A stretch of DNA of 64,000 nucleotides from Bacteroidota bacterium (GTDB taxonomy: Bacteria > Bacteroidota > Ignavibacteria > UBA10030 > UBA8401). Where the stretch lies: positions 5,819-69,818 of the forward strand of contig DATGXR010000444.1 in NCBI GenBank assembly GCA_035298825.1. The letters run 5' to 3'. The notes under the pieces were generated by a model, which was given only the letters and a program-made list of their open reading frames with translations, was not told the DNA's origin and ran no database searches. The translations under genes and the position numbers were made by a program. Of this stretch, positions 12,507 through 29,484 are shown piece after piece. Every line of letters starts with the position of its first letter. The first letter of the stretch is position 1.

Positions 12507-12569
12507 CACAACATTCCTCCACCTCATTTGATTTGAGTATTGATGAGTATTTTCGCTTCTTCTGTGTGA

Positions 12570-12581: not shown

Positions 12582-12887
12582 AATACGAGCGCCGACATTC
12601 GTGCAAAACAATTATGGGACGAACAGCGTCCATTGTGTGATGAACACGCAAATTCGCGTGATCAGATCGCCTGTGGACGCGCCCTGAATAAATGTGATTA
12701 TCGACACACAGAGGTGACTCGCGACTTGTTTCTTTTCTCCAACTTTGCTATCATTTTAAGTACGTGGCTGAACTCGGGAAAGATGAAAAGAGCGAGAGCC
12801 CCGCATGCGGATGAGAGACAGAGAAGTTGCATAGACGGATGAAGAATTGGATCACAAAAATCTTCACACACCGGGGGAAGAACTTCG

Positions 12888-13586
12888 ATGACGAACCAAC
12901 CGACTAAACTGAATATCTCCATACTCCTCGTTGAAGACGAGAAGCGGCTTGCCCGCTCGGTCGAACGTCAGTTGATACGCGCCGGATACGATGTGGCGCT
13001 CGCGTTCGACGGCGTGACTGCATCGCAGATGATCACGTCGCAGGAGTTTCATCTTGTGCTGCTCGATCTGAACCTCCCTCAGAAATCCGGACTCGAAGTG
13101 CTGCGCGAGCTCCGCACGCAATCGTACACGACTCCCGTACTGATTCTCTCGGCGCGCGACGGCATCGAGGACCGGATCCAGGGTCTGGAGATCGGCGCCG
13201 ACGATTACCTGACCAAACCGTTTGATTCGGGCGAGCTCTTCGCGCGCATTCATGCAATACTGCGCCGATCGGGACTGCTGCGGGCGAACATTCTCCAAGC
13301 CGGCGATTTGACGATGGACGTGATCAAGCGCGTCGTCAAGCGCAACGAAAAAGTGATCTCACTGACGCAGACCGAATTCGCACTGCTTGAATTTTTTCTG
13401 CGCAACAAAAATACGATCCTCACGCGCAAGCGCATTGCCGAACAGGTCTGGGGATATAAATTCGAGACCGGCACGAACATCGTTGATGTGTACATGAGTT
13501 ATCTGCGCGATTCGATCGATAAGGATTTTTCAAAGAAGCTCATTCATACAGTCCGCGGCGAAGGGTTCATCATCAAGGAAGAGTGA
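12888..13586 (+). CDS. OmpR-family response regulator (REC + winged-helix Trans_reg_C)
   Basis: ILLVEDE…LLDLNLPQKSG…ADDYLTKPF receiver. C-terminal …LTQTEFALLEFFLRNKNTILTRKRIAEQVWGY…VDVYMSYLR… winged helix. Confidence 0.95.
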   Translation: MTNQPTKLNISILLVEDEKRLARSVERQLIRAGYDVALAFDGVTASQMITSQEFHLVLLDLNLPQKSGLEVLRELRTQSYTTPVLILSARDGIEDRIQGLEIGADDYLTKPFDSGELFARIHAILRRSGLLRANILQAGDLTMDVIKRVVKRNEKVISLTQTEFALLEFFLRNKNTILTRKRIAEQVWGYKFETGTNIVDVYMSYLRDSIDKDFSKKLIHTVRGEGFIIKEE

Positions 13587-13654
13587 GATCATTCAACCGG
13601 CGACCGTTTGGGTTTAAACACCGAACACGCATTATTGATCATCACACCACACCA

Positions 13655-13663
13655 CCCCCCCCC
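13655..13663. repeat. poly-C9 homopolymeric tract immediately abutting the start codon of the REC-PAS-HK gene
   Basis: …CACCACACCACCCCCCCCC-ATG. No SD is present for this gene. Confidence 0.6.
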
Positions 13664-16600
13664 ATGGAACGTGCGCACATACTGATTGTCGAAGACGAGC
13701 TGATTGTCGCCAAAGGGATCGAGTCTGATCTGAAAAGTTACGGCTACATGATTGACGGCATCGCCCGATCGTCCACCGCTGCGCTTGAGGCCGTGGCCGC
13801 GTCGCATCCCGATGTGATTTTGATGGACATCAAACTCTCGGGACAGATGGACGGCATCGAAGTCGCCGAGCATGTCATGCGATGCAACGATATTCCCGTG
13901 ATCTTCATCTCGGCCTACTCCGACGAGGCCACGCTCCAACGCGCCAAGGAAATCACCCCCTACGGCTACCTCTTAAAACCCTTCGAGTCCAAAGAGCTCT
14001 ACACGACAATCGAGATGGCGCTCTATAAGCATCGGATGGAGCGCCGGCTTAAAGACAGCGAACGCAGGCTGCGCCTGATCACCGACAGTATGCTCGATAT
14101 GGTGAGCGAAGTCGATCGCGAGGGCATGTTCACTTATCTGAGTCCTTCGCATAAACAGGTGCTCGGGTACGAGGATGAAGAGCTGATGCATCACCCGGTC
14201 GAGACGCTGTTTCATCCGGAGGACGTCGAGCGCGTGCGCGGCAGACTCGAGCAGGCCTTTGCTGAGGAACACGATCACATTACGCTTGAGATACGACTGC
14301 GTCACAAGGCCGGACACTATTTATGGCTCGAGGCGAATTGCAGCCGGATGCTCGATGCGAGCGGCGGACTCATCGGCGCCGTGATCGGCTCGCGCGATAT
14401 CACGGCAAAGCACGAAGTTGAAGAGCGCATGCACCGCAGCCAGGCCCAGCTTTCAAGCCTGATCGGCTCGGCGATGGACGCGATCATCATCACCGACGAG
14501 GAGCGCAAGATCGTCTTGTTCAACGCCTCGGCCGAATCGATTTTCAAATGCACGGCCGCCGAGGCGATCGGTCACACGATCAATCGCTTCATTCCCCCGG
14601 CGCTGCGCGAGAAGCACGACAGCTACATTCGCTCCTTCGCTGCGGTGGGCGAAGAGTACAGACGCTTCACTGGCATGATGACAAAGGCCCGGGCCATCCG
14701 CGCCACGGGCGAAGAATTTCCATTCGAGGCCACAGTATCCAAGACCGTGACCGACGGCAAGCGGTACTTCACGGTCATTCTGCGCGATGTGACAGAGCAC
14801 AAGCGGGCCGAGGATGCTCTTCGCGCAAGCGAGGAACGCTATCGCCTGGTGGTCACACAGATGCCGGCGCAGCTCTGGACGACAGATTTACATCTGCACT
14901 TCACCTCGACGCAGGGCATCGGCTTCCACACAATCGGCGTCGAACCCAACCAACTGGACGGTCTGGCCATACAACAGTTCTTCAATACAAGCGATCCATT
15001 GTATGCGCCGATTGCCGCACACCGGCGCGCGTTGGCCGGCGAGTCTCTCAATTACGAAGTCACGATCAACGGCCACACGTTCGAGGGCCATGTCGAACCG
15101 CTGCGCAATGCCCAGCAGGTCATCATCGGCACACTCGGTGTCGCCTTCGACATTACCGAGCGCAAATTTGCCGAAGAGGAACTGCAGAGGGAACGCAATC
15201 TGCTGCGGACGATCATCGAGGCCATTCCTGATGAAGTCTACGTCAAAGACCGTAACTGCCGGATGATTCTTGCCAACCGCACGGCGCTGCGTCAGTGCGG
15301 TGTGGCGACGGTCGACGAGATCCTGGGAAAAACCGACGTCGACTTGTTCGGCACTCCGATCGCCGAACAGCATCTGCGCGACGAACAGAAACTGATCGCC
15401 ACGGGCGTCCCCATGCTCAATGTGGAAAACAACCGCTATCATCCTGAAACCGGTTTTCTGCAGCGCTCGATTCTGATCTCAAAATATCCTCTGCGCGATG
15501 TCCAAGGCGGCATCATCGGACTCGTCGGTATTAACCGCGACAACACCGCCCGGCGACGGTCGATTGAGCAGATCCGCCGGGCTAATCTGGTGATCGAAAA
15601 CACGGACACGGTGATTTTCATCTGGCGCCACTCGCCCGACTTGGCGGTTGAATATGTCTCGAACAATATCTCGATCTTTGGATACACGCAAAGCGAACTC
15701 ATTGGCGGCGCAATTTCATTCTTATCGATCATTCACCCGAAAGATGCGCCCATGGTGCTCGAGCCCGCCGCCGGGCACACGAAGTCCCGTTCCTACCACT
15801 TGAAAGGCGACTTCCGGATCATCTGCAAGAACGGGGAGACACGCTGGGTTTCGTCGCGCACGAACACTGTCCGCAATTCGCATGGTGACGTGACGCATTA
15901 TGAAGGTCTGCTGGAAGATATCACCGAGCGCAAGCGCACAGAACATTCCCTGCAGCTCACGCAATTCTCGGTCGACCATGCCTCGGATTCCGTGTTTTGG
16001 ATCAGCAACACGGGAACATTCGTCTATGTGAACCGGGCTGCGTGTCGGCAGCTTGGGTACACAAGCGAGGAACTCCGCGCCCTTTCCATTCCCGACATCG
16101 ACACACAGTTAACGACCGCCAAGCTCTGGTCGCTTTGGCACGCATGCGAGGCGGCAGGCGACGCGGCGCTCAATTTTGATACAATTCATCGCTCGAAAAC
16201 CGGCGAGGAAATACCGGTTGAAGTCACCATCAACCGTATGGAGTTCGGCGACGTTGAATATTTTTTCGCTTCTGTGCGAAATATAAAAAAGCGCAAAGAA
16301 GCCGAGGAAGCATTACGCACATCGGTGACAAACGCGCTAAAGTTTTCAACACTTGCCGCACACGAACTCAGAACTCCCCTGGCCGTCATCCGGCATCAGT
16401 TGGAGGAAACGCTGACACAGGGCACGCCGGCGAAAAAGCTGCGTGAAACGATCACCACGGTTTACGACGAGATGCTCAACCTCTCCAATATTGTCGCCGA
16501 CCTTTTAAATCTAAGCAAGATGCAGGCCGGCAATTTCGAACTGCGTTCGGAGCGCATCGCGCTCCATACGCTGATACAGGAATTCTACGACGAGGCCCTC

Positions 16601-17032
16601 TTTTTATCGCGCCCGAAAGATATCACGATCGTTCTGAAGAAATTTCCCAAAGCATTCATCAATGCTGATGTGCCGCGCCTGCGCCAGGTGCTTTTCAATC
16701 TTTTAGACAACGCGCTGAAGCACACTCCCCCGCATCGTCAGATCCGCTTCGGGTATACGATCACTGAGACCGCCGCCCGGCTCTATTTCGAAGATACGGG
16801 CGAAGGCATCGTTCCCGAAAAACTTGCACGGATCTTCGATCCATATTACCGGGCGGGCGAGGATCTCGACAAATCGGATGGTATTGGCCTTGGATTGACG
16901 CTTGTGAAGTGGATCGTTGAACTCCACCATGGCACGATTAGCGTTGAAAGCATCCCCGATAAAGGCACATCCTTTTTCATCACCCTGCCGTTGGACCTGA
17001 CCGCGCCGCTGGCGTCGCCTGCGTCGCAGTGA
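13664..17032 (+). CDS. hybrid signalling protein: N-terminal receiver, about five PAS/PAC domains, HisKA, HATPase_c
   Basis: MERAHILIVEDE…ILMDIKLSGQMDG receiver. Repeated PAS-like blocks. H-box AAHELRTPLAVI. N-box LLDNALKHT. G-boxes DTGEGI / GIGLGL. Start set at the ATG at 13664, because the longer ORF from 13583 overlaps the OmpR gene. Confidence 0.9.
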   Translation: MERAHILIVEDELIVAKGIESDLKSYGYMIDGIARSSTAALEAVAASHPDVILMDIKLSGQMDGIEVAEHVMRCNDIPVIFISAYSDEATLQRAKEITPYGYLLKPFESKELYTTIEMALYKHRMERRLKDSERRLRLITDSMLDMVSEVDREGMFTYLSPSHKQVLGYEDEELMHHPVETLFHPEDVERVRGRLEQAFAEEHDHITLEIRLRHKAGHYLWLEANCSRMLDASGGLIGAVIGSRDITAKHEVEERMHRSQAQLSSLIGSAMDAIIITDEERKIVLFNASAESIFKCTAAEAIGHTINRFIPPALREKHDSYIRSFAAVGEEYRRFTGMMTKARAIRATGEEFPFEATVSKTVTDGKRYFTVILRDVTEHKRAEDALRASEERYRLVVTQMPAQLWTTDLHLHFTSTQGIGFHTIGVEPNQLDGLAIQQFFNTSDPLYAPIAAHRRALAGESLNYEVTINGHTFEGHVEPLRNAQQVIIGTLGVAFDITERKFAEEELQRERNLLRTIIEAIPDEVYVKDRNCRMILANRTALRQCGVATVDEILGKTDVDLFGTPIAEQHLRDEQKLIATGVPMLNVENNRYHPETGFLQRSILISKYPLRDVQGGIIGLVGINRDNTARRRSIEQIRRANLVIENTDTVIFIWRHSPDLAVEYVSNNISIFGYTQSELIGGAISFLSIIHPKDAPMVLEPAAGHTKSRSYHLKGDFRIICKNGETRWVSSRTNTVRNSHGDVTHYEGLLEDITERKRTEHSLQLTQFSVDHASDSVFWISNTGTFVYVNRAACRQLGYTSEELRALSIPDIDTQLTTAKLWSLWHACEAAGDAALNFDTIHRSKTGEEIPVEVTINRMEFGDVEYFFASVRNIKKRKEAEEALRTSVTNALKFSTLAAHELRTPLAVIRHQLEETLTQGTPAKKLRETITTVYDEMLNLSNIVADLLNLSKMQAGNFELRSERIALHTLIQEFYDEALFLSRPKDITIVLKKFPKAFINADVPRLRQVLFNLLDNALKHTPPHRQIRFGYTITETAARLYFEDTGEGIVPEKLARIFDPYYRAGEDLDKSDGIGLGLTLVKWIVELHHGTISVESIPDKGTSFFITLPLDLTAPLASPASQ

Positions 17033-17081
17033 ACGCTGATCGTCGCCGCCGCTGGCGGGACGTGTGTGAGACCTTCTTTCC

Positions 17082-17115
17082 TTAGAAGTTTCTAACATAT
17101 ATTAGAAAGTTCTAA
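17082..17115. promoter_or_regulatory. tandem palindromic operator: TTAGAA-GT-TTCTAA, 6-bp spacer, TTAGAA-AG-TTCTAA, followed by TTTGCTT (-35-like) and TATCAT (-10-like)
   Basis: Two perfect TTAGAA/TTCTAA inverted repeats with 20-bp centre-to-centre spacing, 85 bp upstream of the REC-DHp gene. The same architecture recurs at 26278-26311. Confidence 0.5.
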
Positions 17116-17200
17116 TTTGCTTGCAGTGTCGAATCTCCCTATCATTATACTGTAACCTGAACACTAATCTTTCTTACGGACACATCACCAGAAAACGACA

Positions 17201-17959
17201 ATGCCGGCACTTCACCTGCTGTTGATTGATGACGAAGATTCATTTCGACGCACATTCCAACAGACACTTACTTCCCAGGGATACACGGTCGATGTCTGCA
17301 CATCTGGCCAGCAGGCGCTCGACGTCCTTTCACACTCGAGGTTCGATGTCGTACTCCTGGACCATTCAATGCCCGAGATGACCGGCTTGAACGTCCTGCA
17401 GTGGATCCACGATCGGAAGATCGACGTTCCCGTCATCCTGTTGACCGGTCCTGGCATGGAAAGCGTGGCGACGCGCGGACTGAAACTCGGCGCGTATGAT
17501 TATTTGCGCAAGGATTATTTCGAATATAATCATATTCCGATCATCATCGACGGCGTGTACGAACGCTATCTCTTCCGCAAGGACCAGGAGTCGCGCGCGT
17601 TGTTGGAGAAGAAAAAGGAAAAGCAGCTTCCCTCACTCGAGATGTTGCGCGATACAGTCACATCGATTGCGCACATCGTCAATACAAATCTCTCGGTAAT
17701 CTCACTCAACATCGAAGAGCGCGCCCACGAACTTGAGGCGTTCATCTCGAATGAAGGCAAGGAGTATCTTGAAAAGGCCAACAGCGAAATGAAGCAGGAA
17801 TACAACCTCATTTCTTTGGTAAGCAAATCACTGATTGATCTTTCGCATGTTATGTACGAGCGGTTCAAAGGTGTCCAGGATACGCGGATGTTCGAAGAGG
17901 AAATGCAGAATAAAATCAAGACCATACAACGCGAGCACTCCGAGACGATGGAACTCTGA
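17201..17959 (+). CDS. response-regulator receiver fused to a C-terminal DHp/HisKA-like helical domain; no ATPase domain
   Basis: Receiver with all key residues (LLIDDED, phospho-Asp in LLDHSMP, T in LLTGPG, K in YLRKD). The C-terminal 110 aa are coiled-coil, with …TSIAHIVNTNLSVISL… resembling the HisKA H-box (SHELRTPLTAI). Confidence 0.8.
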   Translation: MPALHLLLIDDEDSFRRTFQQTLTSQGYTVDVCTSGQQALDVLSHSRFDVVLLDHSMPEMTGLNVLQWIHDRKIDVPVILLTGPGMESVATRGLKLGAYDYLRKDYFEYNHIPIIIDGVYERYLFRKDQESRALLEKKKEKQLPSLEMLRDTVTSIAHIVNTNLSVISLNIEERAHELEAFISNEGKEYLEKANSEMKQEYNLISLVSKSLIDLSHVMYERFKGVQDTRMFEEEMQNKIKTIQREHSETMEL

Positions 17960-17981
17960 AGACAGGAAAGGCATCCCTTCC

Positions 17982-18989
17982 ATGATTCAGCAGCGCATAG
18001 ACACCGCTTCTTCGACTGATGCAGACGCGTCGTGCCTTCCGGGCGCCGAGCGGCCGTTGCCTGTTTTTCTCAGCAGAAGCCCGGTGATCGAACAGATGAT
18101 GGCAACCATCTCGATGATCGCAAACTCTCCTGCCTCGGTGCTTATCACAGGGGAAAGCGGATCCGGCAAAGAGGTCATTGCCCAGTACATCCACGCCTGC
18201 AGCAACCGCTCGGCGCAACCGTTTATCGCCATCAATGCCGCGGCGCTGCCCAAAGATGTGATCGACAATGAACTCTTCGGACATGAGAAAGAAGCCTTCA
18301 CCGGCGCCATCTCGAAAAAATCAGGCTGCTTTGAGATGGCCGATCGCGGTACGCTCTTTCTTGATGAGATCGCCGAGATGCATCCCCAGACGCAGGCAAA
18401 GCTCCTGCGCGCCATCGAATCAAAGTCCTTCAGGAGGCTTGGAGGGAAGGAAGAAGTCACTGTCGATGTACGCGTGGTGGCTGCGACCAATAAGAACATT
18501 CAGCAGGCGATCCAATCCGGAGAATTCCGCGAGGACTTATTTTATCGCCTGAGCGTGATTGAACTGGCGCTTCCGCCCCTGCGCTCCCGACGGGAAGACG
18601 TTCCGCTGCTGACGGATTACTTTCTTGCTTTCTTTGCTCGAAAGTATGAACTTGCGCCGAAGACGGTGTCCCCTGAAGCGATGGAAATGATGAGCGCGTT
18701 CAACTGGCCGGGCAACGTCCGCGAGTTGCGCAACCTCACCGAAGGACTGACGCTTATGTGTCCGGATTGCTCGATCACACCCAAGGCGCTTCCCGAACGC
18801 ATCTCGAACCATGCGCCGCAGCCGCTGACGGTGTCGATTCCTGTGGGCACGCCGCTTGATATGGCCGAGCGCATCTTCATCAATCATACGCTTGCCTCTG
18901 TCGAGCAGAACAAATCGGCCGCTGCGAAAATTCTCGGAATCAGCCGCAAGACGCTTCACAACAAACTCAATGTGTTGCCCACTTCGTGA
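17982..18989 (+). CDS. sigma-54-dependent transcriptional activator (AAA+ sigma54-interaction domain + Fis-type HTH) lacking any N-terminal regulatory domain
   Basis: Walker A GESGSGKE. EAFTGA (GAFTGA variant). Walker B GTLFLDEI. Arg-finger region. C-terminal …KSAAAKILGISRKTLHNKL HTH. Start at the ATG at 17982 with AGGAAAGG upstream; the longer ORF from 17835 overlaps the upstream gene. Confidence 0.9.
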   Translation: MIQQRIDTASSTDADASCLPGAERPLPVFLSRSPVIEQMMATISMIANSPASVLITGESGSGKEVIAQYIHACSNRSAQPFIAINAAALPKDVIDNELFGHEKEAFTGAISKKSGCFEMADRGTLFLDEIAEMHPQTQAKLLRAIESKSFRRLGGKEEVTVDVRVVAATNKNIQQAIQSGEFREDLFYRLSVIELALPPLRSRREDVPLLTDYFLAFFARKYELAPKTVSPEAMEMMSAFNWPGNVRELRNLTEGLTLMCPDCSITPKALPERISNHAPQPLTVSIPVGTPLDMAERIFINHTLASVEQNKSAAAKILGISRKTLHNKLNVLPTS

Positions 18990-19059
18990 AGCGAGTCTGC
19001 ACGCAGTGGAAATTCTGCGCATCTGTCGAGACTGATCGCATCATGAGCGGGCTTCTTCC

Positions 19060-20091
19060 TTATTTTGTCAACACCATTCTCTTTACCGAGACGTACGAAC
19101 CCGCCTGCATCCGACAGAGGTACATGCCGCTGGCCAGACCTGCGGCGCTCCACGAGGTTTGATACCACCCCGGCAGCAACTCCCCATCGACAAGCACGGC
19201 CGAGACCCGACCAAGCATATCATACACTGTCACATTCACTCGCTGGCCCGAGGGAATGGAGAACCAGATTGAAGTTTCCGGATTGAAGGGATTCGGAAAA
19301 TTCTGTTCGAGCTTGAATTCACTGGCCGTTCGTTTCCCGTCAGAGACATGGCTCACCGCCGCTGTGGTTGTAAAATGATAGACGGAAGAAAAAACGCTCT
19401 TCCCATTCGGACTCGCACTCCTGACACGCCAGTAATAGGTTGTGTGGTTGTCGAGCATCAGCGTCTGCGTTGAGCACGCGCCCGCCACACTGCCCGAATC
19501 ACAAAGCGTCGCAAACAACGAATCACTCGAAAGTTGATACTCGTACCATGCCGCATGCGCTGTCTGTTGCCAATGAAGCATCACGCGTTGAGGCTGCTCG
19601 ATAGCATCGTTCACTGGCGTTAACAAAACGGGAGCCGTGGATACGTGCGGCAAGACTGCAGTCATCGATGCAATCACTGCGATGCCGTTGGGGACAAACA
19701 CATCCGGACCCGTGACGTAACGCGTTTGGACTGACGCATATTCGATATCCGTGCTGTGGCTCCAGAGACGGAACGTGATGTGCTCACCGATCGTGATGCC
19801 ATCCACCTCAGGGGTGAACACGTTGTCTCCCCAAACAGTCACTGCGCAATTCGTCCCATTCCAGATGACGCCTCCCACGCACATTCCGGAGACAGTGAAC
19901 GCACCGATCTCATCTCCTGGTGTCAGGCAGACCGTGTCGATCATCGGAGTGCTCGAGACCGGGATCGCCACGATCGCATCCAGCCCCGTGCCCGCGGAGA
20001 ATGAAAAATGGAGACACTGCGATCGTACCGAAAGCGGTGCAGCGATCATCAATGCCATCAGCATGGTTGCACGAATCATTGCTCGTCTCAT
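19060..20091 (-). CDS. secreted protein with Fn3-like domain and T9SS (Por) C-terminal sorting domain
   Basis: Signal peptide MRRAMIRATMLMALMIAAPLSVRSQ. C-terminus …FKLEQNFPNPFNPETSIWFSIPSGQRVNVTVYDMLGRV…YLCRMQAGSYVSVKRMVLTK matches the Por_Secre_tail pattern. Confidence 0.75.
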   Translation of the reverse strand: MRRAMIRATMLMALMIAAPLSVRSQCLHFSFSAGTGLDAIVAIPVSSTPMIDTVCLTPGDEIGAFTVSGMCVGGVIWNGTNCAVTVWGDNVFTPEVDGITIGEHITFRLWSHSTDIEYASVQTRYVTGPDVFVPNGIAVIASMTAVLPHVSTAPVLLTPVNDAIEQPQRVMLHWQQTAHAAWYEYQLSSDSLFATLCDSGSVAGACSTQTLMLDNHTTYYWRVRSASPNGKSVFSSVYHFTTTAAVSHVSDGKRTASEFKLEQNFPNPFNPETSIWFSIPSGQRVNVTVYDMLGRVSAVLVDGELLPGWYQTSWSAAGLASGMYLCRMQAGSYVSVKRMVLTK

Positions 20092-20161
20092 CGGTATTGG
20101 TTTCGTTTTTTTCACTGCATCGTCGTCACTGCAATGTGTCTTCGTTGAAGCCAACAGGAGA

Positions 20162-21982
20162 TCAATCGGGAAGAGGATTCGCCGGATAGACAAGCCTCAC
20201 CGGAGCAGAAACATAGACCATGTATCCGGCGCCCGGTTCGAGTGATACGAACTCCCTTATTCCCTTCGCCGGCCAGTAAATTTTGTTTGCACCGTTGACG
20301 ACAACAAGTTGCATATCCTTAATGCCTGCAAACGCTTCTGCCAGTGTCATGGAATCGGATCGCAGGTACGGAATGAGATTCATTCCCTGCTTGAGTTGTA
20401 ACGGCATGGTCGCCGGATTGATCATGCATCCGCTGAATGTGAGTGTCGTCTCCCTCTCGGCATAGATCCTGTAGCCGGAGCGTGGATCCCAGGTTGTGAT
20501 TGCGTCAATTGAAAGTGCGGGCCAGTACACGCTTCCGGCTCCATTCTTAACAATCACGCCCACCGAGCGAAGATCCCCGCAGATTGAACTCAACGATGAA
20601 TCATTGGGCTGAAGATAACTCGACACCATATTCCATCCCGGCTGCAGATGGACAATTTGTGTTGCCTGCGCCTCAGACGGTTCGACTGGTACCGGAGAGG
20701 CCAAACCGAGTGCGACTGCGATCGCACGCTGCAGCGGATGACGCCTGCCCGATGAGATTGTTTGAGCGGCATCCAGATCCGACACGAAATCGTATGTCAT
20801 GATGCCGCCGAAATGATTGGCATCCATCCAATTTACTTTTTCGACGAGACTCCGCGGCGATTCACCCACCGCAAAAAATTTCATTCCGGTCGCTACGCCG
20901 CCTTGGCCCCATCCCACCACGCCCTCATTGCGCAGAGCCGTGCCGCGTATCGAACGCACTTTGCGCACGTCATCCCATTCCTCCGTGCCGCCATTCGACT
21001 TGAGGGCTTCGATGCGATGATACGAGGCGTTCCCGTAATCAATGCCACCGATCGCCTGAAACAAGCTATCGACGTGACGAAGGACATACCCGAATGTCGG
21101 CACGCCGAGTCCGATGCGTTTCGGATCATGACCGGCGGCCACCCACTGCAGCGGCCCGCGCGTATCGTAGGCCTGGCCTTCGAATGTCGGATCGACCGTG
21201 CCTTTATGCAGAGGCGAGATGTGCCACGAGACGTTCGAATTGATCTTGCCATACCATGCATAAACATAATCATAGAGCTGCAGGTTGAACTGTTCGACCA
21301 TGTAATCCTGTTCGGGCGAATACAAGTCCTGTTGTCCGCTGCCTGCTGAGACCATCAGGAGTCCCGGAGCGCCCGAGGGGGTCTTCATCGTGTGAACACG
21401 GCGATGGAGCATGCGGATAAAGCGATTCACGATCTGGGATGAAGGAAGCGGAGCTGCCCAGGCTTCCCAGTCGAGTTCGACGCCGTCAAAATGTTTCCGT
21501 TCCGCCCACGTCACAAGCGTAGTGATGAAGAGCTCCGTACGCGCGGAATCAGCCGTCACATAATTTAAGTTCTTTGAATTGACCGCCTGGATCGTAATGA
21601 CAACTTTTACTCCCTTGCGGTGTGCGATCGTGACGAGTGAATCCAGATAGTGGGGATATCTTCCATCTCCCGGATTAGCCACACCGTTGAACTCCACGCA
21701 GACTGAATCCGATTCTGTATCCGAGGGCCGCGAAGGCGGCGGCCCGAACATATACGCCCAATAGGGCGCGGTCTTTGTGATATTCCCATTGTCGAACAAG
21801 ACCAAATGCGTCAGTCCGGTCCAATCGATTTCCCAGGGGGGCAAGGCATAGTCCGTCACGCCCAATGGCATCATCGACCATGTGGCATAATATGTGGTAA
21901 ACCATTTTGCCTGCCCCGCAGCGCTCAGCGAGAACAGGATACACAGCAGCACCCCCTGCAACAACCGATATGCGTGCTTCAC
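20162..21982 (-). CDS. glycoside hydrolase family 18 (chitinase-like) with about 280-aa C-terminal extension
   Basis: …FDGVELDWEAW… (DGxxxDWE catalytic motif, with E in place of the middle Asp). TIM-barrel N-half. Start moved to the GTG at 21982 (VKHAYRLLQGVLLCILFSLSAAGQ signal peptide), preceded by GGAGG. This removes the overlap with the next gene. Confidence 0.85.
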   Translation of the reverse strand: MKHAYRLLQGVLLCILFSLSAAGQAKWFTTYYATWSMMPLGVTDYALPPWEIDWTGLTHLVLFDNGNITKTAPYWAYMFGPPPSRPSDTESDSVCVEFNGVANPGDGRYPHYLDSLVTIAHRKGVKVVITIQAVNSKNLNYVTADSARTELFITTLVTWAERKHFDGVELDWEAWAAPLPSSQIVNRFIRMLHRRVHTMKTPSGAPGLLMVSAGSGQQDLYSPEQDYMVEQFNLQLYDYVYAWYGKINSNVSWHISPLHKGTVDPTFEGQAYDTRGPLQWVAAGHDPKRIGLGVPTFGYVLRHVDSLFQAIGGIDYGNASYHRIEALKSNGGTEEWDDVRKVRSIRGTALRNEGVVGWGQGGVATGMKFFAVGESPRSLVEKVNWMDANHFGGIMTYDFVSDLDAAQTISSGRRHPLQRAIAVALGLASPVPVEPSEAQATQIVHLQPGWNMVSSYLQPNDSSLSSICGDLRSVGVIVKNGAGSVYWPALSIDAITTWDPRSGYRIYAERETTLTFSGCMINPATMPLQLKQGMNLIPYLRSDSMTLAEAFAGIKDMQLVVVNGANKIYWPAKGIREFVSLEPGAGYMVYVSAPVRLVYPANPLPD

Positions 21983-22070
21983 TGATAACCTCCAATAAGA
22001 AAGAGAGTGAAAGTGGATACAGCGTGCCGATGATTCTCCAGGCACATGACATCTTTTGCACCGCGCTTTC

Positions 22071-24005
22071 TTAGTGCTTGGATCTCTGCGCAAACGGCTG
22101 GACCGAACGCAGACGGATATTGTCGTAATAGACGCATGCATGTCCGGGCATGTCGCGCCTCAGGAAAAATTTTGTGAAAGGCTCGGCTCCCGAAATCGGA
22201 ACGGTGATCGCATTCCATTGATCGGCTGTCAGCCGGACTTTCTGTGAAGTGTTGTTCGAGAAAACGATCTCGAGCAAGAACGATTCCGAGGGATAGGCAT
22301 CGAACGAGAGTTCCTTATACTCTGTTGCGAGGATCGGCGTTTCTTCGCCCCACGTGCCGTGTTGAAGCCAAAGCGCACCATGGTCTCCGTACTCGACTTT
22401 GATCGATCGTGAACCTGATTTGAATCGCTCCGTCGATTTAAAATTATTCACAACGCCCCAGGAGGCATCAATAAACGGCGCGCGTAGTTCCTCGTCGAAC
22501 ACCACAAGATCATCGAACGATGGACCTTTGCCCCGGTTGCTGACTGTAACGGTGATTTGCGATGCGCCGATATTATTTGCCTCATCCCATGCTTCGATTC
22601 TGATGAGATGGGTTCCGTTTGTCAGTCGCCAGGTATTGAGCGGCGCAGATACGGCGGGTGATTCTTCACACACCGGTCCGTAGGGGACGCCATCGATGAG
22701 AAATCGCAGGCCAACAATGCCGCGATTGTCCTGTGCTTCGGCCTTCAGGCTGATCACACCATTGATCGTTGCTTTTTCTTTGGGAAATGTGACACGCGCC
22801 CGCGGTTTTTCCGTGTCCTGTGTGCGAGGGCGAAGATCGCCCAGCGCGCGCGCGCGCGTGCAAACGGCAGCTGCCACACTTTGCATGAGCTGATTGCGGG
22901 CGCCCGGTTTTTCAGCCGGGAGATATCCCGCGCCCAGTTCGTAGACCATCACGCCGCCGAGACCGAGCGATCTGGCATATTCGACTTTCAGTCTGCAGCT
23001 CGAAGTATCCTCATATGAAATAAAGGTCGTGCCGTCGCCAAACCATGGCACTTGTGAAGAGTGATCCCAGTGCCGTCCTCGTTTTGGAATATCGCGCACC
23101 GTGCCCCAGTTGTGCTCGCCATAGGGACGCGAAGGTTCCACCGGCGGCGTTACATTGGTGAAGACTGTTGTGGTAAACGAAATGCTTACGCCGATTTTTG
23201 AGGCAGGATAGCCTTGGTCGAGCCACGACTTTGGTCCATGCCCGACCTGATCGATAGAAGTGCCGATATACGGTGTAAATTGGGTCGATGAAAAAACCGG
23301 CCCATTATACCCGGTGAGATTTTTCGAGTAATCGCCTCTGTAAAGCTCATATGTCATCGGATTGATCTGGTCGAACACTTCAACCATCGTCTTGCGATCA
23401 TAGGCCGGCAGCGGCGATTCGTTCGTTGCGGCGATAAAGATGCCGCGGGGCGATGACTGATCAAGCTCCTTGCGAAAGCGCCGGATGAGTTGATTGTGCC
23501 GCCATTTGTCCGCGAACTGAGGAAATTCCCAATCGAGTTCAATGCCGTCAATTTTCCATCGCCGCGCAAAGGCGCACGCGGCTGTCACGAAAACATCGAT
23601 GCGCCGATCGTCCTGGGCGATAAAACGCATATTGTCTGCTCCTGGCCCCCAAATGCCGCCGACTGAAAGAATGACCTTGACTCCTTTTTGATGAGCCGCG
23701 GAGACGAGTTCCTTTAAAAATTCGCCAGGCCGTCCGCAATCGACACCGTTGACAAGATTGGCGCTGTCCCGTCGTGTGACGAGCACATCAAGATACGGAG
23801 CCTGTCTCACCGGATTGGCAGAGAACAGCACCACATGCGTCATCAAAGAAAAATCAATCTCCGACACGGGCATCTGGTTATAATACCACCATGGATAATA
23901 TGCCGTGATCCACATCGGTTGACGTTGGGCCTCGAGCCGAATCGCAGAGACGCTGATGAGGACGCTCACAAGAAAGGCGGTGATCATTGCATGTCGTCGT
24001 CGCAT
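22071..24005 (-). CDS. glycoside hydrolase family 18 paralogue with C-terminal Ig-like and CBM-like domains
   Basis: Signal peptide MRRRHAMITAFLVSVLISVSAIRLEAQ. …IDGIELDWEFP… GH18 motif. Then an Ig-like segment and beta-sandwich-like tail. About 35-40% alignable by eye to the preceding GH18. Confidence 0.85.
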   Translation of the reverse strand: MRRRHAMITAFLVSVLISVSAIRLEAQRQPMWITAYYPWWYYNQMPVSEIDFSLMTHVVLFSANPVRQAPYLDVLVTRRDSANLVNGVDCGRPGEFLKELVSAAHQKGVKVILSVGGIWGPGADNMRFIAQDDRRIDVFVTAACAFARRWKIDGIELDWEFPQFADKWRHNQLIRRFRKELDQSSPRGIFIAATNESPLPAYDRKTMVEVFDQINPMTYELYRGDYSKNLTGYNGPVFSSTQFTPYIGTSIDQVGHGPKSWLDQGYPASKIGVSISFTTTVFTNVTPPVEPSRPYGEHNWGTVRDIPKRGRHWDHSSQVPWFGDGTTFISYEDTSSCRLKVEYARSLGLGGVMVYELGAGYLPAEKPGARNQLMQSVAAAVCTRARALGDLRPRTQDTEKPRARVTFPKEKATINGVISLKAEAQDNRGIVGLRFLIDGVPYGPVCEESPAVSAPLNTWRLTNGTHLIRIEAWDEANNIGASQITVTVSNRGKGPSFDDLVVFDEELRAPFIDASWGVVNNFKSTERFKSGSRSIKVEYGDHGALWLQHGTWGEETPILATEYKELSFDAYPSESFLLEIVFSNNTSQKVRLTADQWNAITVPISGAEPFTKFFLRRDMPGHACVYYDNIRLRSVQPFAQRSKH

Positions 24006-24069
24006 ATGGTATCTTGTCGGTTTCGTGATTGAATGGCGGCGGTTGTGATCAGCTGTGCGAAAAATCGGT

Positions 24070-26106
24070 TCAGGCAAATCTGGACTTCATCGGCCGCACA
24101 CACACACCTCCTGATGTATGCCTGCGGGCATGTGCGTCTTCAGCCACGGTCACAGCGTCTCCCGATTCACCTGCGCCGGCCGGTGCGTCAATGATGATGC
24201 TCCCACTGGCCTCCGTGGTATGCACGCGTTCTTCGTGCAAGATGTCTTCACAGATGACGCGCATCTTCCTGATCGGAATGTGATGTAGCTGCGCTGTCAG
24301 CCGAAGACGGGTCATCGACGTTTCCTTAATCGAATCAGAGCAAAGAATAATCTCGTCGACGCCGATCGTGCGGAGAAGGAATGAGAGTTTCCAATGTCCG
24401 CCATAGATCGGATAACCGTTGAGGGTCTTGCCTTCCAGCGTTGAATCATCGTCTAAAAATCCGATGGGCGAATAATTCGTCACTGTTGAATCCAGGATCC
24501 GATCAAGCATCATGATTCCGTTATCATCGGCGCCATAGAACAATACCCGCTTGCCGGCTTTGAGATCTTTATGTGACAAGTACTGCAAGACGCGAAACGA
24601 CATGCGAAAGCCGACAACAAGCGTCAACAGGAAATAGAAATCCAGCATCAATGTGAGCACGTGATCGGTCTTGAGTGGAGAGACAACGATGATTCCGGTG
24701 ATGATTGTGGCGGTGAGCGCGAATCCGACGCACTTGATCATTCGCAGCACATCGCCTAATCCCAAGAGCCTGAAGGTGCCGCGGTAGAGTCCAGAAATCC
24801 TGAACACGCTTACCTGGATCACCGTTACGGCAGCAAGCAGCTCCACCACGACGCGGGGTTGTTCTTGAGGCAGTCCATAGAGCCAGTGCGTGAGCGCGTA
24901 TGCGCAGGAAAAGGAAACAAGAATGAACGCGACATCAAAGAAGACCTGGAGCGCGTCCCGTTTCATCAACGGATGATTATAGAGCGGAAGAAATACTCCG
25001 TTTTGAAGTACGGCCATTTCTCTGTAGCGCAGTTGTCGAACACCAATCACGGTCGAGGCGCCGACGGCACCGAGCACAAATGAAGCGTCGAAATTACTCA
25101 TCACTGTCAACGAGAACGCGGTGATCCCGAGCGCGAACGAAATGGCATAGAGCACAAGCACCGCGTTGCGATGCGACAAACCGCGGGCGAGCAGTCGATG
25201 ATGGATGTGGCTCTTATCCGGCTGAAACATGGATTTCAATTTATTGAGGAGCGACGAATTGGCCGTTTGAGCATCGGGGAGGAACGAACGCAACAGCCGG
25301 CGGGCCATCGACAAGAAGGTGTCCATGATCGGCAGGCCCAGGGCCAGGATCGGAACAACGATTGCGAAGGCGGCCGAGCCTTTTGTCGATGAATGCATCG
25401 AAAGCACCGACAGGGCAAATCCCAGGAAAAGGCTTCCCGAGTCACCCAGGAAGATCCGGGCCGGATTGAAGTTGAACCGCAAAAATCCGATCAGTGCGCC
25501 CGACAGCAGGAGTGCCATGCATGCTGTTCCCATATCACCGTTGAATATCGCGATGGGTGAAATGGTGAGAAAAGCAATCGTTGCCACACCGGAAGCCAGG
25601 CCGTCGAGCCCATCGATCAGATTGATGGCATTCGTGATGCCGATCATCCAGATCATTGTCAATGGATAGTCGAACAGGCCGAGGCAGAGGGTCTGGTTCA
25701 TGAACGGAAGGCTGATCGTTGAGATCCTGAATCCGGCAAGATAAATGATGGTACTTAAAAGCAGCTGCACGAGAAATTTTTGCGCCGGTCCAAGCGGATC
25801 AATATCATCCCAGATGCCAAGCGCGAGCACAAGAAAAAGCACCATCGCGAGCGACAACCCCTCAGCAGTCGAAAGCCATGTCTGGGCGATTATCGACGAG
25901 TCGATCGTCACCAGCAGCAGGAACGAGGCGAAAAATCCCCCACAAATTGCAACGCCCCCCATCCTGGGCATGGCCTTCGTATGCACCTTTCGGGCATTCG
26001 GATAATCCATCGCACCGACTGCCGCAGCCAATTTCATGACCTGAGGTGTGAGAACGAGCGATATTCCCACCGACGCCGCAAACGCTATCATCAGATGTAG
26101 CACCAT
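24070..26106 (-). CDS. polyprenyl-phosphate HexNAc-1-phosphate transferase (WecA/MraY GT4-family) fused to a C-terminal TM + nucleotide-sugar-enzyme N-terminal-like domain (as in PglF/WbpM/CapD)
   Basis: N-half: multi-TM MraY/WecA-like (…DYPNARKVHTKAMPRMGGVAI…DGLDGLASG…). C-half: 4 TM then …KRVLFYGADDNGIMMLDRILDSTVTNYSPIGFLDDDSTLEGKTLNGYPIYGG… resembling the CoA-binding/Rossmann N-terminal region of CapD-type proteins. Start at 26106 preceded by GGGGAGGG. Confidence 0.85.
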   Translation of the reverse strand: MVLHLMIAFAASVGISLVLTPQVMKLAAAVGAMDYPNARKVHTKAMPRMGGVAICGGFFASFLLLVTIDSSIIAQTWLSTAEGLSLAMVLFLVLALGIWDDIDPLGPAQKFLVQLLLSTIIYLAGFRISTISLPFMNQTLCLGLFDYPLTMIWMIGITNAINLIDGLDGLASGVATIAFLTISPIAIFNGDMGTACMALLLSGALIGFLRFNFNPARIFLGDSGSLFLGFALSVLSMHSSTKGSAAFAIVVPILALGLPIMDTFLSMARRLLRSFLPDAQTANSSLLNKLKSMFQPDKSHIHHRLLARGLSHRNAVLVLYAISFALGITAFSLTVMSNFDASFVLGAVGASTVIGVRQLRYREMAVLQNGVFLPLYNHPLMKRDALQVFFDVAFILVSFSCAYALTHWLYGLPQEQPRVVVELLAAVTVIQVSVFRISGLYRGTFRLLGLGDVLRMIKCVGFALTATIITGIIVVSPLKTDHVLTLMLDFYFLLTLVVGFRMSFRVLQYLSHKDLKAGKRVLFYGADDNGIMMLDRILDSTVTNYSPIGFLDDDSTLEGKTLNGYPIYGGHWKLSFLLRTIGVDEIILCSDSIKETSMTRLRLTAQLHHIPIRKMRVICEDILHEERVHTTEASGSIIIDAPAGAGESGDAVTVAEDAHARRHTSGGVCVRPMKSRFA

Positions 26107-26277
26107 CGCACCCTCCCCTTTCACACTTACGAATTGATTCACCCGGCGTGTGTATGTGTGTGATGTTCCGCATCGCAATCTTTCTCTTGCAATGGATCAT
26201 GCCGCCCCCCGGCGCTGGAGAAAGATGTCATCACAACGAACACTTTCAACATAGAGTAATTCATGCGCCGATGCAAA

Positions 26278-26311
26278 TTAGAACACGCTAATATGAATTA
26301 GAATATTCTAA
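26278..26311. promoter_or_regulatory. second copy of the tandem palindromic operator: TTAGAA-CA-CGCTAA, 6-bp spacer, TTAGAA-TA-TTCTAA; on the minus strand followed by TTTGCAT (-35-like), 17 bp, TATGTT (-10-like)
   Basis: About 170 bp upstream of the WecA-like gene start (26106) and 82 bp downstream of the EBP-like gene stop. The motif, spacing and flanking GTTCTAATTTGC are shared with site 17082-17115. Confidence 0.5.
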
Positions 26312-26392
26312 CGCATCGTCACACGCCAAGGCGAAAGAGAAGGAGGAACGGCTCACCTGCAATCGTTCAAGAGGAAGAAGAGCGGGGGGCGT

Positions 26393-27175
26393 TTAGCGTC
26401 GTACGTAGGCAGGCAAATTATCGGGTTCAATCCACTTGCCAGGGCACATGACCGCGGCATATTCAATTGCATTTTTCAAGTGACGCGTATTGCCGGGCCA
26501 ATGGTATGCCTGGCACAATTCAATGGCTTTCGGCGAGATGCCGACAACAGTCGAGTTAGAGCGGGCGCGCAATTCACGTAAAATTTTTTTTATCATCGGC
26601 GGAATGTCCTCTTTGCGATCTCTGAGCGCAGGCAGTTCGATAACGAGAGGACTGATGCGATAATACATCTCCCTGAGGAGGACGCCTTCGTCCATCAACG
26701 CTTCAGGATGGCGGTTGAGTGTGCCGATGATGCGGGTATGGATGTGGATGAGTTGCTCGCCTCCGACGCGTGTGATCGTCTGGTATTCGAGGGCCCGGGC
26801 CATTTTCATTTGCACAGGCAAGGGTAGCAATGCCAATTCGTTGATCAATACCGTGCCTCCGTCGGCTTCTTCAAACGCTCCGCGTCTGAGCACGACACCT
26901 TCGCGCGTCACGGCTTCGTAGCCGAAGAGATCCTTTTCCATCATCTCAGGAGAAAGCGCTCCGCAGTCGAATGGCAGAAACGGACTGCGTGCGCGTCGGC
27001 TGAGGCGATGAATGAATCGTGCAGCCCATTCTTTGCCCGTCCCCTGCTCGCCCACCAAGACAACACTGAGATCGCTCGCCGCGACCCGTTCCATTATCTT
27101 GAGCACTTCCTGCATCGCCGCGCTGCGCACGATATCGAGATCACGTTCGTTCACTGTATGTATGGATTCCATCAT
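26393..27175 (-). CDS. degenerate sigma54-EBP-like AAA+ domain protein (no receiver, no HTH; GAFTGA and Walker B motifs altered)
   Basis: Walker A GEQGTGKE is present. The GAFTGA position reads RRGAFEEADGG. Walker B reads GGTVLINEL (hhhhNE instead of hhhhDE). Sensor-II/Arg region RISPLVIELPALRDRKEDI is retained. The protein ends right after the AAA+ lid. Confidence 0.8.
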   Translation of the reverse strand: MMESIHTVNERDLDIVRSAAMQEVLKIMERVAASDLSVVLVGEQGTGKEWAARFIHRLSRRARSPFLPFDCGALSPEMMEKDLFGYEAVTREGVVLRRGAFEEADGGTVLINELALLPLPVQMKMARALEYQTITRVGGEQLIHIHTRIIGTLNRHPEALMDEGVLLREMYYRISPLVIELPALRDRKEDIPPMIKKILRELRARSNSTVVGISPKAIELCQAYHWPGNTRHLKNAIEYAAVMCPGKWIEPDNLPAYVRR

Positions 27176-27260
27176 GATTATAATAGAGATAGTAGAGAGT
27201 GTATGAATGAGTTGTTAAAGCATGGGCACATGCGGGGAAGCATGTGCCGGCGCCGGGCGA

Positions 27261-28175
27261 TCAATGGAGCGACAGCGGAACAGCAAGCGTCACATAGTGC
27301 ATGCGTTCGGCAGCGACACTTGAAGACACTCCATAATCGATCTCGAGATAGCGCGTGAGAATACCGACTCCCGCCCTTCCAACTGCGGTCACGGGACCGG
27401 AGACGATACCTCCTCTGAGCACCAGAAATTTCCATGGAAAAAGTTCGACTCCAAGCCGGTAGACCAGACGCTCTTCGCCGCTGATGCTTTGGTTCGATAG
27501 ACAGATCGCGACAATCGGCCGGTCGTGTGTCGCCGGATAGCGCCAGGCAGCACCGAAAGTGACCGAGCGTGGAATGTTCGCCTGGGTCTCGAGGATCTCA
27601 GCTCCATGGTCATCCCGCTTCACGACGATGCCTGAACCTAATCCGATGAAGGAGACTCCGTAGGTAAGTGAAGGAAAGACCGAATACATCATACCGAAAC
27701 CCGCCGTATGGCTCGAAGCGCGCCGGCCGTTGAGGTCAACTGAACGAAAATTATAGACCATGCCGATCGCCCATGATGTCATTGGACGCAGCGCATAACT
27801 GATTTCGGCTCCCATCATCTTGCCGGTACTTTTCGTCCACTCGGATTGATCGAACAGCGCGCCTTCGGCGCCCAGCGCAACGGAGTGAGACTCGGTCGCA
27901 AGGACAGGCAGTGTGACGAGTGAGCGCATAAGACGTTCATCCATGCGCACGCCTGCGGTAGCAGTCACATCAAGCGACTGCAGGAACGCAAGACAGGCCG
28001 GATTCCAAAGCACACTGCCAGCGTCGTGGATGTCGGCGACAGCCGCATCGCCCAACGATACGCTGCGTGCCGAAGCAAGCGACTGCGTGAATGAAAAACT
28101 GTTATCCGTCTGTGCACGGGCACACAAGGCAGCCGCCACAATCATCAACACCAGATATCCGCCGTGTCGTCGCAT
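27261..28175 (-). CDS. outer-membrane beta-barrel protein, PorV/PorQ (FadL-like) family candidate
   Basis: Signal peptide MRRHGGYLVLMIVAAALCARAQ. N-terminal …SVSLGDAAVADIHDAGSVLWNPACLA… matches the PorV/PorQ-type motif (S.GLG.A.vA…D…NPAgLA). Alternating beta-strand pattern. AAGGAGA SD upstream. Confidence 0.6.
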   Translation of the reverse strand: MRRHGGYLVLMIVAAALCARAQTDNSFSFTQSLASARSVSLGDAAVADIHDAGSVLWNPACLAFLQSLDVTATAGVRMDERLMRSLVTLPVLATESHSVALGAEGALFDQSEWTKSTGKMMGAEISYALRPMTSWAIGMVYNFRSVDLNGRRASSHTAGFGMMYSVFPSLTYGVSFIGLGSGIVVKRDDHGAEILETQANIPRSVTFGAAWRYPATHDRPIVAICLSNQSISGEERLVYRLGVELFPWKFLVLRGGIVSGPVTAVGRAGVGILTRYLEIDYGVSSSVAAERMHYVTLAVPLSLH

Positions 28176-28256
28176 CCTTGCTTGTCTCCTTGAGCGTGAA
28201 ACCACAGATCCATCACACGATGAGTGTTCTTTTCCACCTGTCGTGTTGTGGTGTGA

Positions 28257-28970
28257 TTAGCGTGCGATCGAAAAGAGTCCGAACAAAAAAAGCGTGTCTC
28301 TCAAGTAGCCCGAGAATTCACGAATAAAATTTTCTTCTCTCGGCACATAGACAATATCGCCGGGACCGATCGTCGGCACCTCGGCAAAATTGCCGGTACT
28401 GAAGTAGCGCGTCAGATCGACTTCGATCGGCGGCGCATTCGCATTGCGGCGAAACACCTTGATGCGCCGGAGATCCGATTCGGATGTGGTGCCGCCGCAT
28501 GCGGCGAGGGCTTCAAGAAGCGAGATGGGCGACGTCAGCGCGAATGTATCCTGCCGCGCGACAGCACCCAGCATTACCACCTTTGCATTCGTGGCCGGGA
28601 GCACAGTCATGCCCACGCTTAATTTTGGATTGCGCGCAAAGACTGAAAATCTTTCGCGCAGAAATTCGATCGCTTGTGTCTTCGACAATCCTTCGAGACG
28701 AACTTCGCCCAGCAGTTTGACAGGGATCATCCCGGTTTCGCTGATGATGGCCGTCGTATCGAATTCCGGATACTCAATCACCCAGATCTTGACTTGATCA
28801 CCCTGCCTGAGCACATAGGCTCCGGAAAGAACATTGCTTGACTGGGATGTTGAAGCCTTTAAGATTGCCTCATCGATCACAACGGCGCGGCTGAAGCAGC
28901 CGGAAAACAATACTCCTGCCGCGGCCATGACCATGAGAGCATACCTGTGGACACCGGAAGAAATTTGCAC
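28257..28970 (-). CDS. polysaccharide export protein, Wza/GumB/BexD family (Poly_export + SLBB)
   Basis: Lipoprotein-like signal …LFSGC. …YVLRQGDQVKIWV… and PGDIVYVP SLBB-type motifs. Confidence 0.85.
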   Translation of the reverse strand: MQISSGVHRYALMVMAAAGVLFSGCFSRAVVIDEAILKASTSQSSNVLSGAYVLRQGDQVKIWVIEYPEFDTTAIISETGMIPVKLLGEVRLEGLSKTQAIEFLRERFSVFARNPKLSVGMTVLPATNAKVVMLGAVARQDTFALTSPISLLEALAACGGTTSESDLRRIKVFRRNANAPPIEVDLTRYFSTGNFAEVPTIGPGDIVYVPREENFIREFSGYLRDTLFLFGLFSIAR

Positions 28971-29418
28971 GCTATTGGACCTTTCGCAGGGGTGTGAAAA
29001 AAAATTTTCTTTTTTTAAAGAAATAATTTGACAAAATCAATCCACTCAGCGATATTACAGTATCTCACCTTTATCAACACACGACAGGCATCCGGTTTCA
29101 CTGTGGAATAGCCCGACGCTCAAGCGGGGAGACGTGTTGGTTCCTGCACCAAATCTACACTAAATTGTTTCAAGAAATGTGCCAAAAGATCGGCGCGCGC
29201 GGATGATCACAGATTCATCCTTGTTTTACGTCACATTGCGCGCACGATGCACTGCCGAAGGTCTGTCTGTACGCAAACCTTCAATGGGTCATGTGAGTCG
29301 TTTTTACACACATGCCACGATCGCAGAGTGTTCTTTTTACGCACATCCGGGAAGGGGTCCCGGCCTCTCATGAGCATTTTTTCTCAAAACTCGTCATGAT
29401 CACGCCATTGCCTTTTCT

Positions 29419-29434
29419 GGGCATACAGATTGCT
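29419..29434 (+). promoter_or_regulatory. candidate sigma54 (-24/-12) promoter: TGGGCATACAGATTGCT
   Basis: GGCA-N8-TTGCT with canonical 12-bp GG-to-GC spacing, 50-75 bp upstream of the wzz-like gene. A weaker divergent candidate lies on the minus strand at 29171-29187 (TGGCACatttcTTGA). Confidence 0.35.
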
Positions 29435-29484
29435 TTTTTATAATCTGAGTCGGCATCCATACCAATGCACTGTAGTGACAATGA

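Follow-up and report, generated by a model that had tools for sequence, protein, structure and literature searches.

OmpR at ompF and ompC and PhoB at the pho boxes bind arrays of 20-22 bp units that end at about -40 or -35 of sigma-70 promoters with a weak -35 element. The units are contiguous on a single helical face, and a dimer occupies each 20-bp unit. Since the proximal unit abuts or replaces the poor -35 in a fixed register, such a promoter depends on its activator. Tandem palindromes are typical of another class of site, the NtrC-type enhancer, in which two palindromes are spaced by whole helical turns and the enhancer-binding protein (EBP) is encoded next door. A third kind of site lies in the cusR-cusC spacer of E. 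coli, which holds AAAATGACAAttTTGTCATTTT, a 6-2-6 palindrome (TGACAA-tt-TTGTCA) that is reportedly the CusR box (Yamamoto and Ishihama 2005). Here we describe a tandem palindromic operator, TTAGAA-N2-TTCTAA twice over, that precedes two operons in a stretch of 64,000 nucleotides from a Bacteroidota bacterium of the class Ignavibacteria (assembly GCA_035298825.1, contig DATGXR010000444.1, positions 5,819 to 69,818 of the forward strand), hereafter the window. We propose that it is bound by a CusR-like response regulator (RR) encoded nearby. No description of a TTAGAA-N2-TTCTAA tandem operator was found in searches of open-access text.

The window sites resemble those of OmpR and PhoB in that two units 20 bp apart would each take one dimer on a common helix face, and in that the proximal unit abuts a poor -35 in a fixed register. 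However, the half-sites of OmpR and PhoB are direct repeats bound head-to-tail, whereas the window units are inverted repeats, so that head-to-head binding is implied. The CusR box has the same layout as the window boxes (14 bp, N4-AA-NN-TT-N4) and shares 4 of 6 half-site positions with them, but its half-site sequence differs from TTAGAA, and the boxes described here always come in tandem (as a triple in one relative, L062) with 20-bp spacing. NtrC-family enhancers likewise hold paired palindromes next to an EBP gene; they differ in that the window sites have no properly placed -24/-12 promoter, touch a sigma-70-type -35 and often lie at loci from which the EBP is absent. The related loci to which we refer by L numbers were compared by tblastn with the window proteins and by targeted look-ups.

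Results

Two tandem palindromic sites in a fixed promoter register

Each of the two sites consists of two 14-bp palindromes, TTAGAA-N2-TTCTAA, spaced 20 bp from centre to centre. Site 1 lies on the plus strand at 17082-17115 and reads TTAGAAGTTTCTAA-catata-TTAGAAAGTTCTAA-tttgc. Its promoter-distal box TTAGAAGTTTCTAA (17082-17095) and its promoter-proximal box TTAGAAAGTTCTAA (17102-17115) have 0 mismatches and are centred at about -63.5 and -43.5 from the predicted start site. Site 2 lies on the minus strand at 26311-26278 and reads TTAGAATATTCTAA-ttcata-TTAGCGTGTTCTAA-tttgc. Its distal box TTAGAATATTCTAA (26298-26311) also has 0 mismatches; the proximal box TTAGCGTGTTCTAA (26278-26291) has 2, both in the inner half-site, and the half-site adjoining the -35 is intact. 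Unlike window site 2, its orthologues in L031 and L032 have two perfect boxes.

With up to 2 mismatches allowed per box, the four boxes of sites 1 and 2 are the sole matches to a single box in the window, and with up to 7 summed mismatches the two sites are the sole tandem matches; the 12-mer GTTCTAATTTGC likewise has exact matches in the window at sites 1 and 2 only. By chance, DNA of this base composition would hold 0.0016 exact boxes and 1.2e-7 tandems of at most 2 mismatches per 64 kb, and in 300 Markov-1 simulations the nearest simulated tandem was at least 6 mismatches away. The initial annotation of this DNA had given the sequences of both sites, which match the DNA exactly, and had reported no other full copies in the window, a claim that these mismatch-tolerant scans of boxes and tandems bear out.

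After each site follow 1 nt (t), TTGCnT, 17 nt and TATnnT. At site 1, TTGCTT (17117-17122) and TATCAT (17140-17145), separated by N17, would form an activator-dependent sigma-70-type promoter (17117-17145, plus strand) for an operon encoding REC252, a receiver protein, and an EBP. At site 2, TTGCAT (26276-26271), N17 and TATGTT (26253-26248) would form the promoter (26248-26276, minus strand) of an operon that begins with a GT4 gene. The register of the GT4 promoter is the same in L029, L031, L032 and L050, and n-TTGnnn-N17-TAnnnT follows about 24 related sites, in the gene-facing orientation only and never in the opposite one. Sigma70-like -35/-10 elements had been noted downstream of both copies at the outset; the hexamers are there, and it is their conserved register across some 24 sites, that is, comparative evidence, that suggests that both pairs are promoters. 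It counts against them that a stringent sigma-70 consensus scan called neither, because their -35 hexamers agree with TTGACA in just 3 of the 6 positions. A weak -35 is expected of an activator-dependent promoter, although on its own this is weak evidence. The 17-nt spacer also holds a conserved GAAT or GATT at +16 to +19 after the operator, directly before the -10: GAAT at 17131-17134 and at 26262-26259 (minus strand), with the same offset in L014, L016, L029 and L030, and GATT in its place in L012, L002, L034 and L060. This tetranucleotide may serve as a further contact or as an element of the promoter.

Across the sites, the half-site positions are near-invariant, while variation is seen at the 2-bp centres and in most of the 6-bp spacer. 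Judged by this pattern of substitution, variable centres between fixed half-sites in a set register are the footprint of a protein-binding site held in a fixed promoter register. It could be argued instead that the paired palindromes form a hairpin in RNA or DNA that stops or dampens transcription running in from the kinase and EBP genes upstream. Pairing of box 1 with box 2 is favourable (-12.5 kcal/mol, z -2.4, at site 1; -23.8 kcal/mol, z -4.4, at site 2), and the dinucleotides at the box centres are complementary in 35 of 62 cases versus 25 in shuffled pairings, in a set of sequences that are not independent. However, tandem palindromes fold in this way by construction, and here the stem is AT-rich, no U-tract follows the sites, no terminator was called at either of them and no Rfam match was found in 12000-30000. 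Selection appears to act on the half-sites and on their distance to the -35/-10 rather than on box pairing, since non-complementary centres occur, for example in L012 and L032, and the genes upstream of the site in Mucilaginibacter and in L004 are entirely different. A hairpin is thus a very improbable explanation, and we return to a protein-binding operator.

The operator is conserved in relatives, upstream of a probable single regulon

The tandem pattern was searched exactly, as TTAGAA-N2-TTCTAA-N6-TTAG-N4-TTCTAA (22 fixed bases), in one genome per GTDB species, a set of representatives that does not include the source genome, and in JGI metagenomes. It had been suggested that the motif be compared with random frequency; in the relatives, the GTDB species genomes yielded 24 loci versus 0.07-1.8 expected by chance, and the JGI metagenomes a further 28. 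Nearly all of these loci belong to the FCB group (Mucilaginibacter, Ignavibacteria, Bacteroidota metagenome-assembled genomes (MAGs) and KSB1), and one pattern-bearing MAG labelled Acidobacteriota is syntenic with the window. Matches in an Endozoicomonadaceae MAG (L019) and in an Anaerovoracaceae MAG, a Firmicute (L021, 4477-4510, where the match lies 14 bp upstream of agrB), have no related genes nearby and were treated as chance or as unrelated systems.

The genes behind the sites, annotated by Pfam and NCBIfam searches together with independent gene calls on the same DNA, are those that the initial annotation had listed. The first gene of the site 1 operon is REC252 (17201-17959, plus strand), which encodes a receiver followed by a long, DHp-like helical hairpin without a helix-turn-helix (HTH) and is, of the genes that follow the motif, the one found most constantly across loci; the second encodes a receiver-less sigma-54 EBP with AAA+ and HTH_8 domains (17982-18989, plus strand). 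The site 2 operon lies on the minus strand and converges on the site 1 operon. It begins with the gene for a WecA-like GT4 with a fused CoA_binding_3 region (24070-26106), a protein identical to a 678-aa NCBI protein, and continues with two GH18 genes (22071-24077 and 20162-22141) and the gene for a Por_Secre_tail protein, presumed type IX secretion system (T9SS) cargo (19060-20079). The synteny of these downstream genes (19060-24077) is kept in L030 and L032. The C-terminal region of GT4 matches the N-terminal non-catalytic part of WbaP/exopolysaccharide (EPS) sugar transferases (CoA_binding_3), and the fusion is common, with both domains present in thousands of homologues.

Conservation upstream of orthologous operons, which had been put forward as a check, is found for REC252 and for GT4; box, tandem spacing and promoter register all recur in front of orthologues of the two operons in about 25 FCB-group contigs. 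L012, L014, L016, L018 and L030 all keep site 1, flanked by the orthologues of the kinase and of REC252. Site 2 is kept between the orthologues of GT4 (60-69% amino acid identity) and of an EBP without HTH in L029, L031 and L032, and upstream of a GT4 orthologue of 51% amino acid identity in L050; the rest of the intergenic spacer has diverged around the conserved site 2. In L035 and L060, one site precedes a single REC252-EBP-GT4(-GH18) operon, and in L062 three boxes precede GT4-REC-EBP. By this gene order, the two window operons are predicted to be one regulon, fused in other lineages. They would share an operator because both derive from one ancestral regulon, which elsewhere is a single operon behind a single site. 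It had been proposed from the window alone that the operator co-controls a signalling module and a polysaccharide-initiation operon; site conservation upstream of the orthologues of both operons, together with the fused operons, makes this well supported. The accompanying idea of two palindromes on one helical face near promoters has held up as well.

A repetitive origin of the two copies was also considered. A termite-gut Bacteroidetes MAG carries the same box in 61-bp tandem arrays at many loci, as might be expected if the window copies were remnants of a mobile or repetitive element. But the window holds only two copies, which are alike in the operator and promoter only and have neither terminal repeats nor a transposase, and in relatives as distant as 50% protein identity the sites keep their place upstream of orthologous genes. 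A mobile origin is hardly credible, the least probable of the explanations considered here. The termite-gut arrays themselves (Th196P3bin14 / Ga0099364: L005, L008, L011, L022, L040, L044, L045, L047 and L056) hold the box TTAGAAATTTCTAA in about 3 copies of 61-bp repeats with 97% matches, at unrelated loci beside helicase, methylase and S1-domain genes, and resemble a family of dispersed repeats more than they do promoters. Arrays of near-identical boxes (TTAGAACGTTCTAA or TTAGAATATTCTAA) with 20-21 bp periods also occur in L024 (3747-3831, a Bacteroides sp. MAG), L057 (1361-1420) and L046 (1080-1113), where no homologue of RR, REC252 or GT4 lies close by; related regulators may bind there. 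For the window, we consider it very probable that the two sites are a real, conserved and functional operator.

An OmpR-family regulator as the probable binder

Which protein binds the boxes is less certain. We think it probable that they are the operator of RR (12888-13586, plus strand), an OmpR/PhoB-family response regulator with REC (PF00072) and Trans_reg_C (PF00486) domains, paired with a hybrid histidine kinase (HK; 13583-17032, plus strand) with REC, multiple PAS, HisKA and HATPase_c domains. The HK and RR genes share 4 nt, and the stop of HK lies 50 bp before site 1; an alternative gene caller places the HK start at 13664. The initial annotation had named as candidates the EBP or a regulator outside the window, and had overlooked this regulator inside it.

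The case for RR is made by its neighbourhoods. The RR-HK operon ends directly at the site in the window and in L010, L017, L012, L014, L016, L018 and L055. In eight Mucilaginibacter-type loci (L001, L003, L020, L023, L052, L053, L058 and L059), the site is instead directly upstream of RR-HK, in some with a gene for an outer-membrane efflux protein (OEP) in the same operon. A site before the gene of its own regulator is in the usual position for two-component autoregulation. Five loci fetched through RR orthologues (L061-L065, 66-73% identity) all have a tandem site, perfect to degenerate, and these sites precede a REC252-like or a GT4 gene. RR thus accompanies the motif in four contexts: the EPS cluster, KSB1 genomes with trehalose-synthase and MscS genes, the RR-HK-OEP arrangement of Mucilaginibacter, and the arrangements of L061-L065. 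On gene content, RR is the only predicted DNA-binding protein that tracks the motif across these four contexts. Between the window and L012, RR is 95% identical, the kinase 77% and REC252 63%.

In the KSB1-type MAGs (site at 2633-2666 in L010 and at 4539-4572 in L017), a small unannotated open reading frame (119-135 aa) comes after RR-HK and the site, and then a trehalose-6-phosphate synthase gene (GT20) and MscS, which looks like an osmotic-stress-like target set. The kinase partner also varies. In the window, L012 and L014 it is a cytoplasmic hybrid of 1120-1150 aa with REC and multiple PAS domains, and in other lineages it has 440-535 aa. Since the HisKA-HATPase core is still about 50% identical while the kinase forms differ, an exchange of the sensory input between lineages seems to have taken place.

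Several points weigh against RR. The assignment is deduced from gene neighbourhood alone, and activation rather than repression is deduced from the position of the sites. There is no RR gene in the fetched 4-10 kb of nine Ignavibacteria-type loci (L002, L006, L009, L034, L035, L039, L041, L048 and L060); L007, where it lies 5.5 kb from the site, is the sole locus of this type with one in the fetched flank. A tandem scan found no box upstream of the window's own RR-HK operon, and autoregulation is unsupported there. Most OmpR-family members bind direct rather than inverted repeats. The shared recognition-helix motif DVYxxYLR is common in the OmpR family and therefore does not discriminate. Finally, RR falls short of the named subfamily that it resembles most: its best NCBIfam match is TIGR01387 (the heavy-metal response regulator subfamily), with a score of 220.5 versus a cut-off of 279.2 bits.

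It is possible that the boxes are the operator of another transcription factor encoded elsewhere, and that the proximity of RR-HK is coincidental within a conserved cluster. In about half of the site-bearing loci, the fetched flank lacks an RR gene; the source genome is visible over 64 kb only; and 6-2-6 palindromes suit many dimeric HTH families. However, the motif adjoins RR orthologues in four gene contexts in which RR is the sole common factor, and in Mucilaginibacter the site stands before the RR gene itself. We consider another factor unlikely. RprY, an orphan OmpR-type regulator of Bacteroidetes, was rejected as the known counterpart (127.5 versus a cut-off of 370 bits for the RprY equivalog); no binding motif for it was found in the published accounts of RprY consulted.

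The closest named relatives of RR are CusR and HprR (CopR/PcoR-type), which belong to the same protein family. RR is 42% identical to E. coli CusR and scores 196.6 versus a cut-off of 420 for the CusR equivalog NF007346. As in cus/czc loci, the Mucilaginibacter site precedes an operon for a response regulator, a kinase and an outer-membrane efflux protein. In contrast, CusS is a membrane sensor, and the kinase of the window lineage is a cytoplasmic multi-PAS hybrid. No metal genes are among the window targets (REC252/EBP, GT4/GH18), and an OEP efflux gene occurs only in the Mucilaginibacter loci. Given the below-cut-off score and the lack of metal genes in the regulon, we file RR as a CusR relative and not as CusR.

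The EBP and REC252 considered as binders

The initial annotation had favoured the EBP encoded at 17982-18989, for which the boxes would be an enhancer (upstream activating sequence, UAS) or an autoregulatory operator bound by its Fis-type HTH. The protein does have an HTH_8 domain, site 1 precedes its own operon, and in the window, L012, L030, L032, L035, L060, L055, L061 and L062 an EBP gene follows the site. Yet no GG-N10-GC (-24/-12) promoter follows either site: the only GG...GC pair after site 2 has an 11-nt gap, which is the wrong spacing, and a canonical sigma-54 promoter overlapping TTTGC was rejected, with AA rather than GG at the -24 position. In L031, the site is only 78 nt from the start codon, which is too short for a UAS and a -24/-12 promoter. 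The sites instead stand at a fixed 1 nt from a sigma-70-like -35. Moreover, L014, L016, L002, L006, L009, L010, L017, L063, L065 and all Mucilaginibacter loci lack an EBP gene close to the site, and the cluster's conserved sigma-54 promoters are found at other positions (29169 and 29419), without such boxes. It is therefore improbable that the EBP is the regulator of these sites, and RR is still preferred.

REC252 was rejected as an autoregulating DNA binder. Its AlphaFold model (40 homologues, pLDDT 86) predicts no HTH; it has a receiver, then a helical hairpin (helices 109-178 and 184-223), with some 130 C-terminal residues of unknown type, so that the earlier label of REC-DHp is a fair description. 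Foldseek matched the model to receiver domains and linkers only, NtrC1 on top, and the C-terminal part had no PDB sequence match and no Pfam domain. At least 250 homologues of about 250 aa occur in FCB MAGs, always as a separate gene, in many loci followed by the gene for a receiver-less AAA+/HTH_8 EBP. REC252 and the receiver-less EBP look like a split NtrC1-type activator.

A putative sigma-54 tier in the same cluster

Upstream of site 2, and ending 82 bp before it, is an operon for Poly_export, a PorV-like protein and an HTH-less EBP (26393-28970, minus strand), which is syntenic in relatives. The HTH-less EBP (26393-27175, minus strand) has an AAA+ domain and lid only, with neither receiver nor HTH, and is the last gene of the Poly_export/PorV-like operon, an arrangement conserved in L029, L031, L032 and L061. 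Two candidate sigma-54 promoters (TGGCAC-N5-TTGAA/TTGCT) stand back to back between this operon and a Wzz-like gene at 29485: TGGCACATTTCTTGAA upstream of Poly_export (29169-29184, minus strand) and, divergently, GGGCATACAGATTGCT upstream of the Wzz-like gene (29419-29434, plus strand). Of the four syntenic loci examined (L029, L031, L032 and L061), all keep the Poly_export motif; the divergent motif is found in each except L032. The two candidate promoters are likely targets of the cluster's two EBPs.

Discussion

The arrangement of sites, promoters and genes suggests how such a circuit could work. Phosphorylated RR would bind each 14-bp palindrome as a dimer, head to head, and two dimers 20 bp apart, centred at about -63.5 and -43.5, would cooperate on one helix face. 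The proximal dimer, abutting a weak -35 of which only TTG is kept, would recruit sigma-70 RNA polymerase from this class II-like position, in the manner of OmpR- and PhoB-type activators; the register of dimer and promoter is observed, and activation is what it would imply. From site 1 the promoter would then express REC252 and the receiver-less EBP, and from site 2 GT4, the GH18 proteins and the T9SS-cargo protein, a gene content that is read directly from the annotation. The induced EBP would in turn fire the conserved sigma-54 promoters before the Poly_export and Wzz operons, where the motifs are observed and their function is predicted. The whole would be a feed-forward circuit for surface polysaccharide.

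A broader scenario is more tentative, and we put it forward with rather more doubt than confidence. In it, a CusR-like two-component clade of Bacteroidota, Ignavibacteria, KSB1 and allied uncultured lineages would have been rewired from metal efflux to serve as a master switch for surface polysaccharide. Through the tandem operator, RR would drive the GT4 operon and, in parallel, the split NtrC-like activator, which would act on the sigma-54 promoters for export and polymerisation. Mucilaginibacter has possibly retained the metal-efflux state.

What has been found is a new operator and regulon for a known regulator class, not a new regulatory principle, and the switch is most likely a solid but ordinary kind of bacterial gene control. 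It provides a concrete cis-element and a candidate regulator for a polysaccharide/signalling cluster in largely uncultured FCB bacteria, for which hardly any regulons are known, and it links a two-component system with a sigma-54 cascade. If the assignment to RR is true, it also adds a case of an OmpR-family protein with an inverted-repeat site. The 34-bp tandem box in its fixed promoter register is a usable motif for regulon mapping in FCB lineages.

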